From positions 1 through 42,768 of IMG/VR virus record IMGVR_UViG_2531839663_000008: DNA of 42,768 nt; one strand, 5' to 3'. Below the pieces are notes generated by a model that saw only the letters and a list, made by a program, of their open reading frames with translations, did not search any database and had not been told where the DNA came from. This stretch comes from a virus (Duplodnaviria > Heunggongvirae > Uroviricota > Caudoviricetes). Below are positions 34,315 through 42,021 of the stretch, in pieces. Both the position numbers and the translations under genes were made by a program. Positions within the stretch are counted from its first letter, which is position 1. The number at the start of each line of letters is the position of its first letter.

Positions 34315-34650
34315 ATGGATCCGATAACCAACATCACTGACGAACCTATCCAGCGGCATGTTCTGATTTTTGACCGTGGTGAGGCTGTGGTCACTATTCG
34401 TTATCTGCCTACGGTTGAAATGTGGAAAATGCGCGTGGAGTACAACGGTGATTACATCGACGGCGTGAAGCTGTCCCTCGGGACGCTACATTTTCGGCAC
34501 AAGAACTGGCCTTTCGACGTTGTGTTACTTTGCGCTGACAATTCCGGCATTGACCCATATCGGGCTGACGACTTCGCCAGTGGTCGCATCGAAATGTATC
34601 TGGTCACGCCGGAAGAGATGATTGATATTCGCGGGGGAGACGTGCCGTGA
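34315..34650 (+). CDS. Baseplate protein (putative)
   Basis: 111 aa, positional. Confidence 0.4.
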   Translation: MDPITNITDEPIQRHVLIFDRGEAVVTIRYLPTVEMWKMRVEYNGDYIDGVKLSLGTLHFRHKNWPFDVVLLCADNSGIDPYRADDFASGRIEMYLVTPEEMIDIRGGDVP

Positions 34651-35594
34651 TGGATACTTTTTACCGTGATTATCGGCTGACGGTGGGGATCGGCAATCAA
34701 GCAGTGATTATCGAGCCACCGATCACCGTGTCATTCAAGGCGCTGGAAACTGTGGACAAGAAGTCACTCGGCAAGCTGAGTGTGTCCATCAACGGGCTAA
34801 AGCCTTCCACGCGTCTGCAATTGCTCAAGTCCGAAGATGAAGAGAAGTATATCCCCGTTCGACTCGAGGTTGGTTACGACGGCAAGCTGCGCCAGGTATT
34901 TCAGGGTTCGGTTAAAAGCGGAGCAGTAAAGCGTGAGGGGGCGATCCACATCGTCAGCCTGGAATGTGAAGACGGTGGCCACGACTATATCAACGCTTTC
35001 ACATCGCGCACGGTACGCGGGAAAGATCAGGTCGTCGATTCTGTCTTGCAGGATATGCCAAACACGAAAAAAGGCTCTGTGACGAAGCAACAAGCACTCA
35101 TCAGGCCGAAGGTTCTGGTAGGTAGCTCCAGTAAAATTCTTACCGATACCCTTGCGTCCGACGAGTCATTTTTCATCAAAGATGAGCGCGTCCACATCCT
35201 CAAGGCTAATGAGGTTACATCGGGTAACATTCCAGTCGTGAATGCGCGTAGCGGTCTGCTAAATACGCCTCAGGCAACGAAGATTAGCGCACAGGATGAC
35301 GGGGGGAAGAAAGCCAAGATGCCAACCAATGAGCCTGATACGGATCCGGCAGGCAAAAAAGATACTGACTCGAGTACCTTAGCCAAATCCTCGAAAGGGC
35401 AGATCGTATTCGATACGAAACTGAATCCTATGCTGGTGATCGGTGGGCTTTGCGCTGTTGAAAGCGTGACGAACCCCGCGTTAAACGGGGTTTATAAGAT
35501 ATACCAGATTGAAACCAGCGGGCAGAACAACGGGGCAGCCTGGTATCAGAAGGTGGTATGCCAGCCTGCCGGAAATTACTCAGTTGTTAACTGA
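34647..35594 (+). CDS. Baseplate hub-like protein (putative)
   Basis: 315 aa, positional. Confidence 0.45.
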   Translation: MMDTFYRDYRLTVGIGNQAVIIEPPITVSFKALETVDKKSLGKLSVSINGLKPSTRLQLLKSEDEEKYIPVRLEVGYDGKLRQVFQGSVKSGAVKREGAIHIVSLECEDGGHDYINAFTSRTVRGKDQVVDSVLQDMPNTKKGSVTKQQALIRPKVLVGSSSKILTDTLASDESFFIKDERVHILKANEVTSGNIPVVNARSGLLNTPQATKISAQDDGGKKAKMPTNEPDTDPAGKKDTDSSTLAKSSKGQIVFDTKLNPMLVIGGLCAVESVTNPALNGVYKIYQIETSGQNNGAAWYQKVVCQPAGNYSVVN

Positions 35595-36113
35595 AGATTT
35601 TACTTCTTGCGTTACGCTGGAATTGGTTTTTTCTGGTGGGTGACGATCTGAAAGCCAGCCAAGAGCAAAAATAATGACTGTGAGAATAAAAATTTTCTCG
35701 CCTATTGAAAACTTCACCTTACCACCTGCATTTTTAAATGCCGTTTTCTCCTCGGTTGATAGTTTTCTAAATTGCTTATGGGTTAATACCATGACCAATG
35801 GGCGAGGTGGTTGAATATCTTCCTGACCATCCTCTAACAACGTTGAGTCCGAAAAGAAACCAAGCCGCTCAGGTGCTTGTTCCTCTACGTTCTCAGCGTG
35901 TTTACCGGTGGAGTTCTTTTGACCCGCGAGCAAGTTTCCACTCGTGTAAGACAAACCGGTACCGGGAATGCCTGCGGTTGCCTTTACCCCTTTTTTACCA
36001 ACGTTCAGGGTAGCACCAGCCTTACCAATTGATGCGCTAGTAATGCCTGTTTTACCTATGTTTATATGAATGCCTGGTGCAATTTTGATGCGCTGTCTGA
36101 ATTTGAATCCCAT
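35580..36113 (-). CDS. DUF4236-like protein with C-terminal TM helix, reverse-oriented moron in the baseplate cluster
   Basis: N-terminus MGFKFRQRIKIAPGIHINIGKTG...GIPGTGLSYTSG matches the DUF4236 signature; C-terminal KIFILTVIIFALGWL; AT-rich; only minus-strand gene in the structural operon. Confidence 0.5.
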   Translation of the reverse strand: MGFKFRQRIKIAPGIHINIGKTGITSASIGKAGATLNVGKKGVKATAGIPGTGLSYTSGNLLAGQKNSTGKHAENVEEQAPERLGFFSDSTLLEDGQEDIQPPRPLVMVLTHKQFRKLSTEEKTAFKNAGGKVKFSIGEKIFILTVIIFALGWLSDRHPPEKTNSSVTQEVKSSVNN

Positions 36114-36228
36114 GAGTGACTCTCCTTAGTATTAAACGCTGGCGCAGGTTCGCTCTACGGCGATTAGTATGAGTATTTATCTAGCCATCCATTGAACCCA
36201 CTCTGGCGGTTTTTTATGGGCTTAATTT

Positions 36229-36846
36229 ATGATCGAAGAACTTCACGACACTATCGGCCTGGGTGTTGAATTTGCTCTGGCCGATGTTCACACCATTGTT
36301 GTCGCAAAAATAACGTCTGTAAATGACAAAACAATCAGTTGCGTCCCCGTTATCAATCGGGTTGTGAAAGGGAGCAGCAAGCAACTCCCAGAGTTCATTG
36401 AAGTCCCCCCGGTAATTTTGCAAGGCGGTGATAGTTATATCGCCGAACCAATTGCGGCTGGTGACTATTGCCTCGTCCTTATCTCTGAGCGTTGTTATGA
36501 CGCTTGGTATGCGGGTAGCGACTTTGTTTCACCACTTGAAATGCGTATGCACGATTATTCAGATGGCTTCGCTCTGTGTGGGGTTAACCCACAGGCTACC
36601 GCGATCAATATCCCTAAGAAGAACAGGATGATGAAGGGGGATTCTGACCACGAGGGTGATTTAAACCTCACAGGAAATATTACCCAGAAAGATGGTAAGA
36701 CGACTCTGGAAGAATGCGATGTTCTGAATGTACTTCAATATTCCCAGGTAAAGACAGGCGGTAAGTCTGGGGTGTCTGGTTCATTTCGAAGCGATGACGG
36801 GAAAACAATCACAGTTACCAACGGTATTGTCACGGAGATCTCATGA
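36229..36846 (+). CDS. Baseplate assembly protein V-like (spike)
   Basis: 205 aa; gpV-like baseplate position. Confidence 0.6.
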   Translation: MIEELHDTIGLGVEFALADVHTIVVAKITSVNDKTISCVPVINRVVKGSSKQLPEFIEVPPVILQGGDSYIAEPIAAGDYCLVLISERCYDAWYAGSDFVSPLEMRMHDYSDGFALCGVNPQATAINIPKKNRMMKGDSDHEGDLNLTGNITQKDGKTTLEECDVLNVLQYSQVKTGGKSGVSGSFRSDDGKTITVTNGIVTEIS

Positions 36847-39996: not shown

Positions 39997-40589
39997 TGAA
40001 ACCTGTATTTGATGAAAATGGGCTGGCTAGAGTGCCGGGTGATATGCGTTGTTTTTATTATAATGCAGTAACGTATGAATATACCGGCTGGTCTGATGAA
40101 TATATTAATACTGGCGTAAGTATGCCCGCCTGTTCCACTGGTATTGACCCGGGCGAAAACATTCCGGGAAAAGTGGCAGTATTTACAGGTAAGGGATGGA
40201 GCCATGAAGAGGACCATCGCAATGAGACTGTTTACTCAATCGAAAATGGCGCAGCTGTTACAGTGGATTATATCGGTGACATCAAAAACGGTTATGTCAC
40301 GCTTTCACCGTTAACGCCATATGATAAATGGGATGGTGAGAAATGGGTGACAGATTCTGAGGCACAACACGGTGCCGCAGTAGAAGCAGCAGAAGCACAG
40401 CGCCAGTCGCTGATTGATACTGCAATGGCTTCCATCAGTCTGATTCAACTGAAATTGCAGGCCGGACGTAAACTGACGCAGGCAGAAACCACCCGACTTA
40501 ACGCTGTGCTGGATTACATTGACGCGGTGACGGCAACAGATACCAGCACCGCGCCGGATGTCATCTGGCCTGAACTGCCGGAGGCGTAG
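39996..40589 (+). CDS. Tail fibre assembly protein (variant 1)
   Basis: 197 aa; C-terminal TSTAPDVIWPELP shared with the convergent paralogue. Confidence 0.7.
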   Translation: MKPVFDENGLARVPGDMRCFYYNAVTYEYTGWSDEYINTGVSMPACSTGIDPGENIPGKVAVFTGKGWSHEEDHRNETVYSIENGAAVTVDYIGDIKNGYVTLSPLTPYDKWDGEKWVTDSEAQHGAAVEAAEAQRQSLIDTAMASISLIQLKLQAGRKLTQAETTRLNAVLDYIDAVTATDTSTAPDVIWPELPEA

Positions 40590-41013
40590 GCCATTCAATA
40601 TCTGGCGCACTGGAGGAATCAACCAGTTCCAGTGCGTCCAGATAATCCAGCCACAAATTATATTGCGCCAGTTCATCATCTTTCAGACGACCAATAGCGG
40701 CTTTACCGGGCCATTGCTTACTGTTCATGTATTCGTTGGCCTGGTTAATTAGTAACTGTCTTTCTGATTCAGTAATTTCAATAAGCTCTTCATGCGTGGG
40801 TGGAGGAATATCTGCCCACGCAGGCAGCCCATCATCTCCGGCAATACGGATTTTTCCTTGTGGCGGTTCAGCCATAAACTCACTGATAATATTCTGATTT
40901 ACTTCCTTAGCGTCTGATAAATCCCATCCCTCTGATTTATATTTATCAATCATATCCACAGGAAAAAAAGCATTATACCTTGCGCTATAAACATATTCGT
41001 TCATATAAATCAC
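40561..41013 (-). CDS. Tail fibre assembly protein (variant 2)
   Basis: 150 aa; C-terminal SSSAPDIEWPTPP; 3' ends of the two assembly genes overlap convergently. Confidence 0.7.
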   Translation of the reverse strand: MIYMNEYVYSARYNAFFPVDMIDKYKSEGWDLSDAKEVNQNIISEFMAEPPQGKIRIAGDDGLPAWADIPPPTHEELIEITESERQLLINQANEYMNSKQWPGKAAIGRLKDDELAQYNLWLDYLDALELVDSSSAPDIEWPTPPAVQAR

Positions 41014-41024
41014 CCTGAATAAAA

Positions 41025-41471
41025 TTACTCACCAACAGCCCACCAACTGTAATTCATCGATACCGTGTCGCTGGTTGATGACGTTCTGTAAGCAGAATTA
41101 AAACCGGTTAACGTTGGGCCTTCTGCCGTCATCACGAACCCTCGCCCAGCGCCTAAAGGCGCACCGCCATCACCAGAATGAGTAAGCATGGCGCAGTCCG
41201 CTTTTTTGGGGAAAGGGATGCTGAATGTAATTCTCATTGTTTGCGTCGATAATGTCGGCGTAACCGCACCACGACCATATTGCAGGATTTTCCCGTTGGG
41301 TAATTTCATCCATCCATCACCACTGGCAAAAGAGGCCATGTCCGGTATCTGATTTTCCCCTGTCCCAACATTTCGTTTTGCCGCTTCTCCCAAACCAACC
41401 TTTTTAAAACCCTCAAGTATCTGGCGATCTCTCGCCGTTTCTCCTGTTTTCACAACAGGAGAAATACCCAT
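41025..41471 (-). CDS. Alternative tail-fibre C-terminal segment, expressed only after inversion
   Basis: 148-aa ORF whose 5' end coincides with the right crossover site; the ATG in the ORF track is probably not a real start. Confidence 0.55.
   Translation of the reverse strand: MGISPVVKTGETARDRQILEGFKKVGLGEAAKRNVGTGENQIPDMASFASGDGWMKLPNGKILQYGRGAVTPTLSTQTMRITFSIPFPKKADCAMLTHSGDGGAPLGAGRGFVMTAEGPTLTGFNSAYRTSSTSDTVSMNYSWWAVGE
41435..41467. repeat. Right inversion crossover site (candidate)
   Basis: CCGTTTCTCCTGTTTTCACAACAGGAGAAATAC, internally palindromic (TTCTCCTGT / ACAGGAGAA), immediately upstream of the invertase ATG. Confidence 0.5.
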
Positions 41472-42021
41472 GATTTACGGCTATGCCCGAGTATCAACAA
41501 ACCACCAGGACACCGAACTTCAGCGAATCGCGCTCGAATCAGCAGGGTGCGAACACATAATGGAAGAGCATGCCAGCGGTAGAAAATCAAACCGCCCCGT
41601 ACTGAAGCGCCTAATTACGGCGATGCATACGGGAGATGAGTTGGTGGTCTGGAAGCTGGACAGGATTGGGCGTAACGTTTTACATGCGCTGCTGATGTTT
41701 CAGCAACTACAGGAGAAGGGCATTAACTTCCGAAGTATTACCGATGGTGTTGATCTCAAAACAGCCAGTGGTCGCTATAACTTTCGCAACATCCTCTCTG
41801 CGGCACAATACGAATCCGACCTTAATAGTGAGCGCACTTTGGCGGGTTTAGCTGTTGCCAGGGCAAAAGGTCGTGTTGGTGGCAGAAGACCAAAGTTTAC
41901 TGACGATCAGTGGAAGGAAATTGGTGAACTGATAGCTGCCGGAGAATCCAGACAGATTATTGCCAGCAGGTATAATGTTGGCATGTCCACGCTGTATAAG
42001 AAGTTTCCCGCTGGATGCTAG
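41470..42021 (+). CDS. Serine recombinase, DNA invertase (Hin/Gin/Cin/Pin family)
   Basis: 183 aa; N-terminal IYGYARVSTNHQDTELQ with catalytic Ser, central resolvase domain, C-terminal HTH. Confidence 0.9.
   Translation: MIYGYARVSTNHQDTELQRIALESAGCEHIMEEHASGRKSNRPVLKRLITAMHTGDELVVWKLDRIGRNVLHALLMFQQLQEKGINFRSITDGVDLKTASGRYNFRNILSAAQYESDLNSERTLAGLAVARAKGRVGGRRPKFTDDQWKEIGELIAAGESRQIIASRYNVGMSTLYKKFPAGC

Follow-up and report, generated by a model that had tools for sequence, protein, structure and literature searches.

What is a lone leftward gene doing among the baseplate genes of a prophage, between hub and spike, and how might its product serve the phage that carries it? The question arises from the window, the whole 42,768-nucleotide stretch of Caudoviricetes DNA analysed here (IMG/VR record IMGVR_UViG_2531839663_000008). 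An earlier note, made from the sequence alone, had described a DUF4236-like, AT-rich, membrane-anchored gene among baseplate genes, the only one on the minus strand in a 16-kb structural run. The gene is real: it is a conserved, reverse-oriented accessory gene between the hub and spike of an E. coli prophage (Table 1), and its 3' end does overlap the stop region of the hub gene, as the note had stated. The minus-strand ORF encodes 177 residues beginning MGFKFRQRIKIAPGIHINIGKTG. The profile search proposed as a check matched all 55 positions of Pfam DUF4236 (PF14020; residues 3-57 aligned to model positions 1-55, E=4.9e-19), with 69 bits against a curated gathering threshold of 27 bits, and phrog_18347 was matched over the full length of the protein. 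In E. coli NADC1036, which carries a 100% identical prophage, RefSeq labels the same CDS 'DUF4236 domain-containing protein', and this is the only minus-strand CDS from terS to the tail-fibre assembly gene; the structural run itself measures about 19-20 kb and not 16 kb. No match was returned when the region was compared by megablast with 50,697 phage records. Full-length homologues with 53-92% identity are found at the same position in many prophages, and the whole-gene dN/dS is 0.12-0.26, so this is not a chance ORF. The Shine-Dalgarno sequence is kept upstream of the gene in three relatives (L003, L011 and L079).

Table 1. Features of the DUF4236 locus, in coordinates of the window
Feature	Position	Strand	Basis
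Baseplate hub gene (E217 gp41-like), left flank	34647..35594	+	Pfam PF22759; phrog_196 'baseplate hub'
Convergent overlap of the DUF4236 and hub gene stop regions, 15 bp, TCAGTTGTTAACTGA	35580..35594	.	Read from sequence
CDS of the 177-aa DUF4236 protein	35580..36113	-	Stop codon 35580-35582; ORF list, Pfam, RefSeq
Hydrophilic C-terminal tail, 22 residues, predicted periplasmic	35583..35648	-	
Exchangeable cargo cassette	35595..36209	.	Homology breakpoints against relatives with other cargo; slot lengths
Predicted single transmembrane helix (residues 141-155), N-in/C-out	35649..35693	-	Hydropathy; AF2
Conserved juxtamembrane motif MVLTHKQFRKLSTEEKTAFKNAGGKVKFSIGEK (residues 108-140)	35694..35792	-	Invariant columns
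Acidic, disordered, fast-evolving linker (residues 63-107)	35793..35927	-	pLDDT <50; net charge -5
DUF4236 domain (residues 3-57), basic six-strand beta-meander, predicted cytoplasmic	35943..36107	-	Pfam; AF2
5' leader, conserved with the mnt-DUF4236 intergenic region of Salmonella relative L011	36114..36170	-	blastn
Shine-Dalgarno AAGGAG	36122..36127	-	8 nt before ATG; read from sequence
Membrane-puncturing spike gene, right flank	36229..36846	+	Pfam PF18352 (phage spike N-terminal domain); RefSeq product name
Candidate resident slot promoter: best leftward sigma-70-like site, TTTACA-N17-AACAAT, inside spike codons 23-32	36295..36323	-	Tool scan; PWM

The product is predicted to be a single-pass inner-membrane protein with its N-terminus in the cytoplasm and its C-terminus outside. 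This is the usual layout of DUF4236 proteins, with an N-terminal domain, a linker and a transmembrane (TM) segment: in 75 of 89 homologues a TM or hydrophobic segment follows the domain, frequently right at the C-terminus. The AF2 model places the strands of the domain at residues 7-58 with a pLDDT of about 90, and residues 1-62 carry a net charge of +9. The domain is the most constrained part of the gene (dN=0 relative to L003). The dN/dS of the acidic linker reaches 0.31-0.35, and the linker is partly deleted in five homologues (P0015/16/18/21/23). The juxtamembrane motif holds the only invariant columns common to all three protein forms, and is also present in proteins of the c33 family, which have no DUF4236 domain. 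As for the TM segment, hydropathy peaks at 1.8-1.9, the AF2 helix extends over residues 137-157, and the net charge is +3 on the N-terminal flank and 0 on the C-terminal one. The membrane anchor proposed earlier is thus supported by hydropathy, the model and the homologues. The description of the product as ending with a hydrophobic helix needs amending, since the hydrophilic tail follows it. Paralogues of 248-252 aa have a cystatin/NTF2-like domain of about 95 aa in place of this 22-residue tail; the domain contains Cys, which fits a periplasmic location.

The window protein is a clear member of Pfam DUF4236 and PHROG 18347. Its C-terminal half, with the juxtamembrane motif and TM segment, is specific to a small group of enterobacterial prophages. 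A wider family for this C-terminal core was sought and dropped, as only 4 credible related clusters were found among 1.84 billion cluster representatives. A ribbon-helix-helix-like (RHH-like) reading of the strand-helix-helix arrangement in the juxtamembrane motif was also abandoned, as the helices are too short and Pfam gives no support. Foldseek against the PDB gave no match with E<0.19 and no informative structural neighbour; its top matches, chains of contractile-injection baseplates and spikes, have TM-scores <=0.2 and were therefore rejected as meaningful.

The position of the gene is best understood from its relatives. In 86 related tail modules the hub-spike interval ranges from 12 to 2464 bp: it is nearly empty in some (36 bp in L083, 12 bp in L090/91) and spans 387-2464 bp where other cargo is present. 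Six or more cargo families occupy it, including a signal-peptide protein (c1), a DUF7424 lipoprotein, a 2-TM bPH_2 protein, a secreted tRNA_anti-like protein, the c33 protein with its TM and periplasmic parts, and the DUF4236 protein. Every alternative cargo carries export or membrane signals, which together with the range of interval lengths identifies the slot as an accessory hotspot. One alternative cargo, c70, matches phrog_8545, 'superinfection exclusion Sie-like' (E=8e-14); PADLOC gave no match for the slot cargos other than DUF4236. A genome-contig search with the hub profile returned only 2 loci. Homology in blastn breaks off at about 35589-35600 to the left and 36210-36228 to the right, exactly at gene ends, and the synonymous divergence of the DUF4236 cargo differs from that of its flanks. 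The locus fits two published marks of morons (PMC3594210): extra DNA between genes that are adjacent in relatives, and a base composition unlike the surroundings (GC 43.6% and GC3 39%, as against 47-52% and 47-65% in the neighbouring genes and 51% GC in the structural region). The assignment made earlier is supported in that the gene is an accessory one of the moron type. Absence of the ORF from close relatives with an identical tail module had been named beforehand as a refutation, and such absence is what we found, with hubs 94-97% identical carrying different cargo. As this is what a swappable accessory gene looks like, it is no argument against one. The slot belongs to a lambdoid prophage whose contractile tail is E217-like, and the gene is one among several cargos that can be exchanged in it; as an element it is ordinary, of a familiar type of prophage add-on, and what it carries is an uncharacterised family.

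How such a gene would be transcribed is less straightforward. The earlier note held that the 115-bp spacer between the DUF4236 and spike ATGs (36114-36228) must carry a promoter of its own, which no scan supports: neither the tool scan nor the PWM revealed a convincing canonical sigma-70 promoter there, and the best PWM sites score 3.5-5 bits. The annotated P22 promoter PsieA is similar, at 3.1 bits. The best leftward site is embedded in the spike gene. It scores 9/12 in the tool scan and 9.98 bits with the PWM (99.993 percentile of the window), and its -10 element ends 181 nt upstream of the DUF4236 ATG; from the percentile, a site as good is expected by chance in about 7% of 217-nt stretches of the window. 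The site is present in nearly all relatives whatever their cargo and is broken in the near-empty slot of L083, and of the 31 three- or fourfold degenerate sites in spike codons 1-60 none is invariant except the third positions of Ile23 and Val31. Where c1 is the cargo, no more than about 21 bp remains before the spike ATG, which means that the promoter of c1 must be within the spike gene. Loci with plus-strand cargo keep the embedded site too, and it may thus serve another purpose or reflect other constraints. Our candidate promoter for the DUF4236 gene is this embedded site or, failing that, a weak site within the spacer. Past the stop codon, the tool scan found no canonical intrinsic terminator; a GC hairpin without a T-run is present at 35472-35492, inside the hub gene. 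An Rfam search of 35300-36500 returned nothing.

In some relatives the gene has other neighbours. In Salmonella (L011/12) and Yersinia (L013-15) relatives, it is found 63-69 nt downstream of the gene of a true homologue of P22 Mnt (42% identity, E=1e-14), and Arc and Ant homologues diverge from the mnt/DUF4236 pair. This recalls the order in P22, where rightward gene 16 is followed by leftward sieA, orf59a and mnt, and then by rightward arc, ant and 9. In these relatives the divergent promoters are strong (10-15 bits) and no terminator separates mnt from the DUF4236 gene. The window copy has no mnt, arc or ant, and has only the conserved leader in common with that arrangement (blastn, 52 nt at 86.5%; the homology to L011 spans 35689-36170). 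In the Firmicutes phages Roseburia Shimadzu and Ruminococcus RG-TP1, DUF4236 genes lie between the repressor and integrase genes. These contexts, namely an mnt/immI-like site, a repressor-integrase site and a Sie-like allelic cargo, favour expression from the prophage and an exclusion function.

Our preferred reading, which we advance as a serious but tentative possibility, is that the slot cargo studied here is a superinfection-exclusion factor of the inner membrane, made by the prophage from an independent leftward transcript. Its transcription would not depend on the Q-dependent late operon, to which it would run antisense, and would most likely start at the candidate promoter within the 5' part of the spike ORF, or otherwise at a weak promoter in the spacer. 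The protein would then be produced in the lysogen, act at the inner membrane and block genome entry of superinfecting phages, in a role like that of P22 SieA or HK97 gp15.

SieA is an inner-membrane blocker of DNA injection whose gene is always between genes 16 and 9 (PMC10883804). The Salmonella and Yersinia DUF4236 genes occupy the equivalent place, and both genes are patchily present among relatives; in each of the two proteins, moreover, the conserved motif is predicted to lie on the cytoplasmic side. The resemblance is not one of sequence: BLASTP gave only chance segments of 13-23 residues (best E=0.036), so homology to P22 SieA was rejected, and the motif FxRYPxEAxxFNK of SieA types A-C is absent from the DUF4236 protein. 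SieA is multi-pass, whereas the DUF4236 protein has one predicted TM segment and a large cytoplasmic beta domain; P22 is a podovirus and the window phage a myovirus with an E217-like baseplate; and exclusion is demonstrated for SieA but putative for the DUF4236 protein. HK97 gp15, a tail-operon moron expressed from the prophage, is a small inner-membrane Sie protein that blocks genome entry in a tail-dependent manner (PMC3594210). It resembles the DUF4236 product, as predicted, in being a small inner-membrane protein encoded by an insertion inside a tail operon, and in C. difficile phages the place of gp15, flanked by the tail chaperone and tape measure protein (TMP) genes, is taken by a DUF4236 gene. 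The analogy drawn is one of position and proposed function; the gp15 gene points the same way as the tail genes and brings a promoter and a terminator of its own, whereas the DUF4236 gene is reversed and has no recognisable terminator. Lastly, Ltp-type Sie lipoproteins such as that of TP-J34 are prophage-expressed envelope proteins that block DNA injection and are encoded in the lysogeny module (PMC3952083), like the Roseburia and Ruminococcus DUF4236 genes. They are extracytoplasmic lipoproteins that target the tape measure protein, in contrast with the predicted cytoplasmic DUF4236 domain, and are related to the DUF4236 protein in neither sequence nor fold.

Several observations weigh against an exclusion function. 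Most of the protein is predicted to lie in the cytoplasm, whereas an incoming tail makes its first contact elsewhere; for the best-conserved motif of SieA, however, a cytoplasmic location is likewise predicted. The protein has no similarity to SieA, PADLOC-DB 2.0 returned no defence family at E<=1 and NCBIfam no match for it, and no structural neighbour is informative. The window copy also has neither mnt, arc and ant nor a strong spacer promoter. Two features of the wider family count against the reading as well and are taken up below: its fusions in bacterial proteins, and its occurrence in phage settings not linked to lysogeny.

An unlikely alternative, though the strongest of its rivals, is that the protein modulates the envelope or physiology of the host by lysogenic conversion, altering a membrane process such as transport, stress response or division. 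All slot cargos are envelope proteins, most of them with no link to phage exclusion, and the silence of PADLOC agrees with such a role. In bacterial proteins outside phages, DUF4236 is fused to SH3_3, zinc-ribbon, TM2 or TPR domains, which points to a general-purpose module near the membrane more than to a domain devoted to anti-phage activity. Against this stand the sieA-like position next to mnt in relatives, the Sie-like allelic cargo, and the recurrence of DUF4236 genes in or beside tail genes, near the TMP, hub or spike, in five phage lineages inspected. In Klebsiella phage RCIP0034, for instance, a reverse-oriented DUF4236+TM gene lies immediately upstream of the spike gene, one 110-aa gene separates it from an E217_GP41-like hub gene, and a 12.9-bit promoter points at it.

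Some of these lineages raise a further, rather less likely alternative, a lytic-cycle role in which the protein bars secondary infection or re-adsorption of progeny, or tunes lysis or tail-tip handling, from a transcript made early or antisense at induction. DUF4236 genes have the same orientation as the late tail genes in phiCD146/phiCD38-2 and Ab11510-phi, those of the C. difficile phages encode no TM segment, and lytic Klebsiella phage FBKp34 has its DUF4236 gene among early genes; the family is thus not tied to lysogeny. The window spacer, too, shows no strong promoter of the lysogen type. Nevertheless, the gene is antisense to the Q-antiterminated late transcript, which would be expected to suppress it at late times; mnt, to which its relatives are linked, maintains lysogeny in P22; and a slot that is elsewhere almost empty (L083) or filled with unrelated cargo indicates that the gene is not needed for virion production.

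We regard as improbable that the protein is a membrane-acting abortive-infection or toxic effector, whose DUF4236 domain would sense an infection cue and whose TM segment would oligomerise, depolarise the membrane and kill the cell. A small tail-anchored protein with an amphipathic-looking beta-sheet domain could oligomerise, and a single-gene cassette in a prophage hotspot would suit such an effector. Yet no known Abi or defence model is matched, the cassette encodes neither a partner nor an antitoxin, a lone hydrophobic helix of 15 residues is ill suited to forming pores, and immI/sieA-type and lysogeny-module contexts are classical for entry blockers. Finally, it is very improbable that the gene is a decaying remnant of a 250-aa protein that has lost its periplasmic domain and function: the longer paralogues do have this extra, confidently modelled domain and c33 forms keep it without DUF4236, but the short form is the commonest (about 26 loci) and intact in all, its Shine-Dalgarno sequence is strong, and purifying selection acts on the whole gene and most strongly on the DUF4236 domain and the core+TM segment (dN/dS 0-0.12).

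It is tempting to extend the exclusion reading, although we think the extension unlikely to hold. The hub-spike interval might be a plug-and-play dock in which a leftward promoter embedded in the spike gene and a 3' hairpin embedded in the hub gene serve any envelope-acting cargo that recombines in; selection at synonymous sites may then hold the promoter in place. DUF4236 would supply the cytoplasmic part of tail-anchored phage proteins that form a large class not recognised so far. Such proteins would stop genome delivery on the inner side of the membrane and stay genetically linked to TMP, hub or spike genes across unrelated phages.

No function has been described for DUF4236 in the searchable literature, as the earlier note had also stated: 'DUF4236' returned one incidental mention, 'PF14020' only Plasmodium gene IDs, and the WP accession nothing. 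The family is widespread in phages and bacteria, and this locus, a single 534-bp gene, offers a compact entry point to it. Natural variants that have or lack the DUF4236 domain, or that have or lack the periplasmic one, are available, and the other cargos of the slot provide built-in controls. If the protein does not act in exclusion, the locus is one more uncharacterised prophage moron. If it does, DUF4236 would represent a new family of inner-membrane exclusion proteins, and this would help to explain why accessory genes cluster beside tail-tip genes.

The minus-strand DUF4236 ORF between the baseplate hub and spike genes is a real gene under selection, judging from sequence comparisons. The earlier note had placed such an ORF here and called it DUF4236-like. 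Both points were borne out, with residues 3-57 matching the PF14020 profile (E=4.9e-19, 69 bits against a Pfam cut-off of 27), and a Shine-Dalgarno-type AAGGAG lies 8 nt 5' of its ATG. Full-length homologues with 53-92% identity are found in Escherichia, Kluyvera, Salmonella, Yersinia and Pantoea. Against five diverged orthologues, the dN/dS values of the gene are 0.12-0.26 versus 0.03-0.06 for the hub gene, with tight constraint (0-0.12) on the DUF4236 domain and residues 108-155 and relaxed values (0.3-0.6) in the linker and the C-terminal tail. Its GC content is 43.6% (GC3 39%), in a structural region of 51% GC. It converges on the hub gene with a 15-bp overlap and is separated from the spike ATG by a 115-bp spacer; 3' of the spike gene lie those for the sheath initiator, baseplate J and wedge. 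The plus-strand structural operon, first put at 16 kb, is nearer 20 kb long. The overlap of the two stop regions is a near-palindrome, which gives the convergent proteins similar C-termini (…SVVN and …SVNN).

The prophage of E. coli NADC1036 is 100% identical over the region, with the same CDS in its RefSeq annotation; among 5426 complete E. coli genomes, just 5 have the exact region. That prophage has a lambdoid early half (integrase, RecET, repressor/Cro-like, O/P-type replication, NinG and Q antiterminator) and an E217-like contractile tail, and is inserted between kch and yciI/tonB. Its right end has what looks like a Gin/Cin-type invertible host-range segment, with tail-fibre and tail-fibre-assembly genes on both strands beside a serine recombinase.

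Features around the hub-spike slot, genes found in the slot of related tail-module loci (L numbers) and forms of the proteins that share the juxtamembrane core
Feature	Position or loci	Strand	Size	Remarks
Baseplate hub, E217 gp41-like	34647-35594	+		Pfam PF22759, phrog_196; left neighbour
Hairpin AACCCCG-N7-CGGGGTT	35472-35492			hub ORF, about 90 nt past DUF4236 stop; about -12.5 kcal/mol
Near-palindrome	35580-35594			TCAGTTGTTAACTGA
DUF4236 ORF	35580-36113	-	177 aa	N-terminus MGFKFRQRIKIAPGIHINIGKTG
Short weak hairpin, then T6 run	36196-36215	+		just 5' of spike ATG; CCACTCTGGCGGTTTTTTAT
Membrane-puncturing spike	36229-36846	+		right neighbour
Best leftward sigma-70-like site, TTTACA-N17-AACAAT	36323-36295	-		spike codons 23-32
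Tail-fibre and assembly genes	~40560-42020 (L001 25659-27341)	both
arc-mnt spacers	L013 4575-4710; L011 4560-4720
Degraded prophage, E. coli strain 1506	L002 7082-7980
NUMOD3-domain gene	L007 11486-12286; L014/L015 from 10295	reverse	266 aa	between sheath and tube genes
Empty slot	L083; L090/91		36 bp; 12 bp	L090/91 distant relatives
c1, signal-peptide protein	about 25 loci	-	about 120 aa
c33, TM + periplasmic domain	L064, L082, L087	-	147-157 aa
DUF4236 protein alone	about 26 loci, window among them	-	155-177 aa
DUF4236 + added periplasmic domain	L078	-	251 aa	sole cargo
c1 + DUF4236 in same slot	L020/61, L037-47	-
bPH_2 'membrane-flanked domain' protein	L031, L059, others	+	139-146 aa	2 TM
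DUF7424 lipoprotein	L052-54, L066, L073	+	about 231 aa
Secreted tRNA_anti-like protein	L057	+	245 aa
DUF4236 + mnt-arc-ant	L011-L015	- then +	167 or 252 aa (DUF4236 protein)	slot 2.1-2.5 kb
Window form			177 aa	DUF4236 + linker + core + TM + short tail
Long form			248-252 aa	window-form parts + C-terminal domain of about 95 aa
c33 form			140-157 aa	core + TM + C-terminal domain, without DUF4236

We collected 86 loci, each with a hub and a spike homologue, using a hub profile (A3) in IMG/VR (72 loci) and GTDB genomes (2 loci) and a search with the DUF4236 protein. ORFs in the hub-spike slot were called and clustered, and representatives were scanned. Over these loci, the interval between the end of the hub gene and the start of the spike gene ranges from 12 to 2464 bp and falls into discrete lengths. 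All cargo families have signals for export or for the membrane. One of them, the secreted tRNA_anti-like protein, has a further match to phrog_8545 ('superinfection exclusion Sie-like', E=8e-14). Hubs 94-97% identical to that of the window have c1 or bPH_2, not DUF4236, beside them. Relative to loci with other cargo, homology breaks at ~35589-35600 and 36210-36228, which are the two gene ends. Synonymous divergence from L003 is 0.18 for the DUF4236 gene versus 0.51 and 0.52 for hub and spike. The variable slot, the breakpoints and the differing synonymous divergence identify an exchangeable accessory gene rather than a part of the baseplate, in agreement with the 'moron' reading of the earlier note. 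The most fitting description is that of a prophage accessory gene open to swapping, which encodes a predicted single-pass inner-membrane DUF4236 protein.

Several further observations concern the slot and its surroundings. In the L037-47 group, a clearer hairpin (CGC-TTCG-GCG) followed by a T7-9 run corresponds to the weak one of the window, and the right-hand homology breakpoint of the cassette is at the start of the T-run. In the degraded prophage of strain 1506, IS1 removed the early region up to the slot, and a truncated c1 gene lies directly 5' of an intact spike gene. The NUMOD3-domain gene inserted in some relatives looks like a homing endonuclease, and its site is a second insertion point of the tail module.

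Four genes fill the slot in Salmonella (L011/12) and Yersinia (L013-15) prophages, whose hubs are 95% and 84% identical to that of the window. In late-strand orientation, the rightward hub gene is followed by leftward DUF4236 and RHH genes, then by rightward RHH, antirepressor and spike genes. The RHH protein encoded upstream of DUF4236 is homologous to Mnt (42% identity over 71 aa, E=1e-14), and the antirepressor to Ant (E=5e-36 in L011, 6e-40 in L013). The divergent RHH gene of L011 encodes a homologue of Arc (E=1.6e-9); for the small gene in its place in L013, no match to Arc was significant. The arc-mnt spacers contain strong divergent promoter-like sites (10-15 bits), which overlap in L011 and L013, with palindromic repeats GTATGTA…TACATAC in the latter, and they resemble the P22 Pant/Pmnt operator region. 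The DUF4236 gene lies 63-69 nt from mnt, and no terminator-like hairpin was found in this gap. The architecture is that of P22 immI, in which rightward gene 16 is followed by leftward sieA, orf59a and mnt, then by rightward arc, ant and gene 9. The DUF4236 gene occupies the position of sieA; its product has no homology to P22 SieA. Among P22-like phages, only some have sieA, and only between genes 16 and 9 (PMC10883804). The 5' leader in the window (36114-36170) shares homology with the spacer between mnt and the DUF4236 gene in L011, so that the window form and the immI form are related by gain or loss of mnt-arc-ant.

That the 115-bp spacer must carry a promoter was an inference only: a tool scan of 36114-36228 gave no sigma-70-like site, nor was a terminator found 3' of the DUF4236 gene. 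In a PWM scan, the best spacer sites score 3.5-5 bits, against only 3.1 bits for the annotated P22 PsieA, so that a weak spacer promoter could still exist. The best leftward site lies in the spike gene (10 bits, 99.993 percentile of the window). It is kept in nearly all relatives whatever their cargo, including loci with plus-strand cargo, where antisense RNA would result. In L083, whose slot is near-empty, the site is disrupted (-10 element AACAAC). In 58 unique spike 5' sequences, only Ile23 and Val31 have invariant third positions among the 31 three- or four-fold sites of codons 1-60. Both lie within the hexamers of this site, and the calculated chance of both invariant sites falling among the three hexamer sites is about 3/465. 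Since only about 21 bp separate the c1 cargo from the spike ATG, its promoter must be within the spike gene. A resident leftward promoter embedded in the spike ORF is a plausible reading of these patterns. The GC-rich hairpin in the hub ORF is kept in most relatives via conserved third-codon positions, and several loci whose slot is near-empty or has plus-strand cargo have lost it. The lack of a T-run sets it apart from canonical terminators; leftward transcripts could use it as a 3'-end or stability element.

Hydropathy reveals a sole hydrophobic segment, IFILTVIIFALGWLS (residues 141-155), flanked by net charges of +3 on its N-side and 0 on its C-side; residues 1-62 carry +9 and residues 63-107 carry -5. 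The AlphaFold2 model, built on a 64-sequence alignment, comprises a six-strand antiparallel meander (residues 7-58, pLDDT about 90), a disordered stretch (65-106), a short strand-helix-helix-strand element (109-134) and a TM helix (137-157). The hydrophobic helix that the earlier note had seen is there, not at the very end as claimed but followed by a 22-residue hydrophilic tail. Columns invariant in all three protein forms are found only in the juxtamembrane core, LTHKQFRKLSTEEKTAFKNAGGKVKFSIGEK in the window, and the GWL closing the TM segment is nearly invariant. The extra C-terminal domain has two conserved cysteines and is modelled as a four-strand sheet with a helix packed against it, cystatin/NTF2-like. 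Together with the positive-inside rule, the cysteines and this fold argue for an N-in/C-out topology, with a predicted cytoplasmic DUF4236 domain. In a search of 1.84 billion representatives, the core-TM module appeared nearly private to this phage group, with only four credible clusters. The periplasmic domain occurs in only eight protein clusters. The DUF4236 domain is widespread, and some homologues are fused to SH3_3, zinc-ribbon, TM2 or TPR domains; of 89 homologues, 75 have a TM segment after the DUF4236 domain, in many cases at the very C-terminal end. Fold comparison of the protein returned generic beta-meander matches only. The cargo proteins P0090, P0092 and P0093 (slots of L064, L082 and L087) are natural 'headless' forms without the DUF4236 domain, which keep the juxtamembrane motif, TM segment and periplasmic domain of the long DUF4236 proteins, and represent a ready-made domain-deletion series.

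DUF4236 genes also occur in other phage lineages, several times within or next to the tail genes. In Klebsiella phage RCIP0034, a 105-aa DUF4236+TM gene in reverse orientation lies directly 5' of the spike gene, with a 12.9-bit promoter-like site directed at it and a single 110-aa gene between it and an E217_GP41-like hub. In Pasteurella Pmp2 the DUF4236 gene adjoins the baseplate hub. In C. difficile phiCD146/phiCD38-2 it lies between the tail chaperone and tape measure genes, the position of the HK97 gp15 moron (PMC3594210), and in Acinetobacter Ab11510-phi two genes 5' of a putative tape measure gene (a 4.9-kb ORF annotated as hypothetical only). Two further phages, Shimadzu (Roseburia) and RG-TP1 (Ruminococcus), have it in the lysogeny module, between repressor and integrase genes and co-oriented with both. 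There are counter-examples, namely a lytic Klebsiella phage with a DUF4236 gene among its early genes and a C. difficile DUF4236 protein without a TM segment.

It is tempting to propose superinfection exclusion at the DNA-entry step, by a prophage-expressed protein, as the most likely role, although we would put its chances at somewhat less than even. Host-envelope modulation instead of exclusion might be served by the same membrane protein. A role in the lytic cycle has the lytic Klebsiella phage on its side and the linkage of relatives to mnt on the other; abortive infection is a further candidate. Decay, another alternative, is at odds with the constraint on the gene. We found no functional description of the DUF4236 family in the literature; the gene itself belongs to a familiar type of prophage element.
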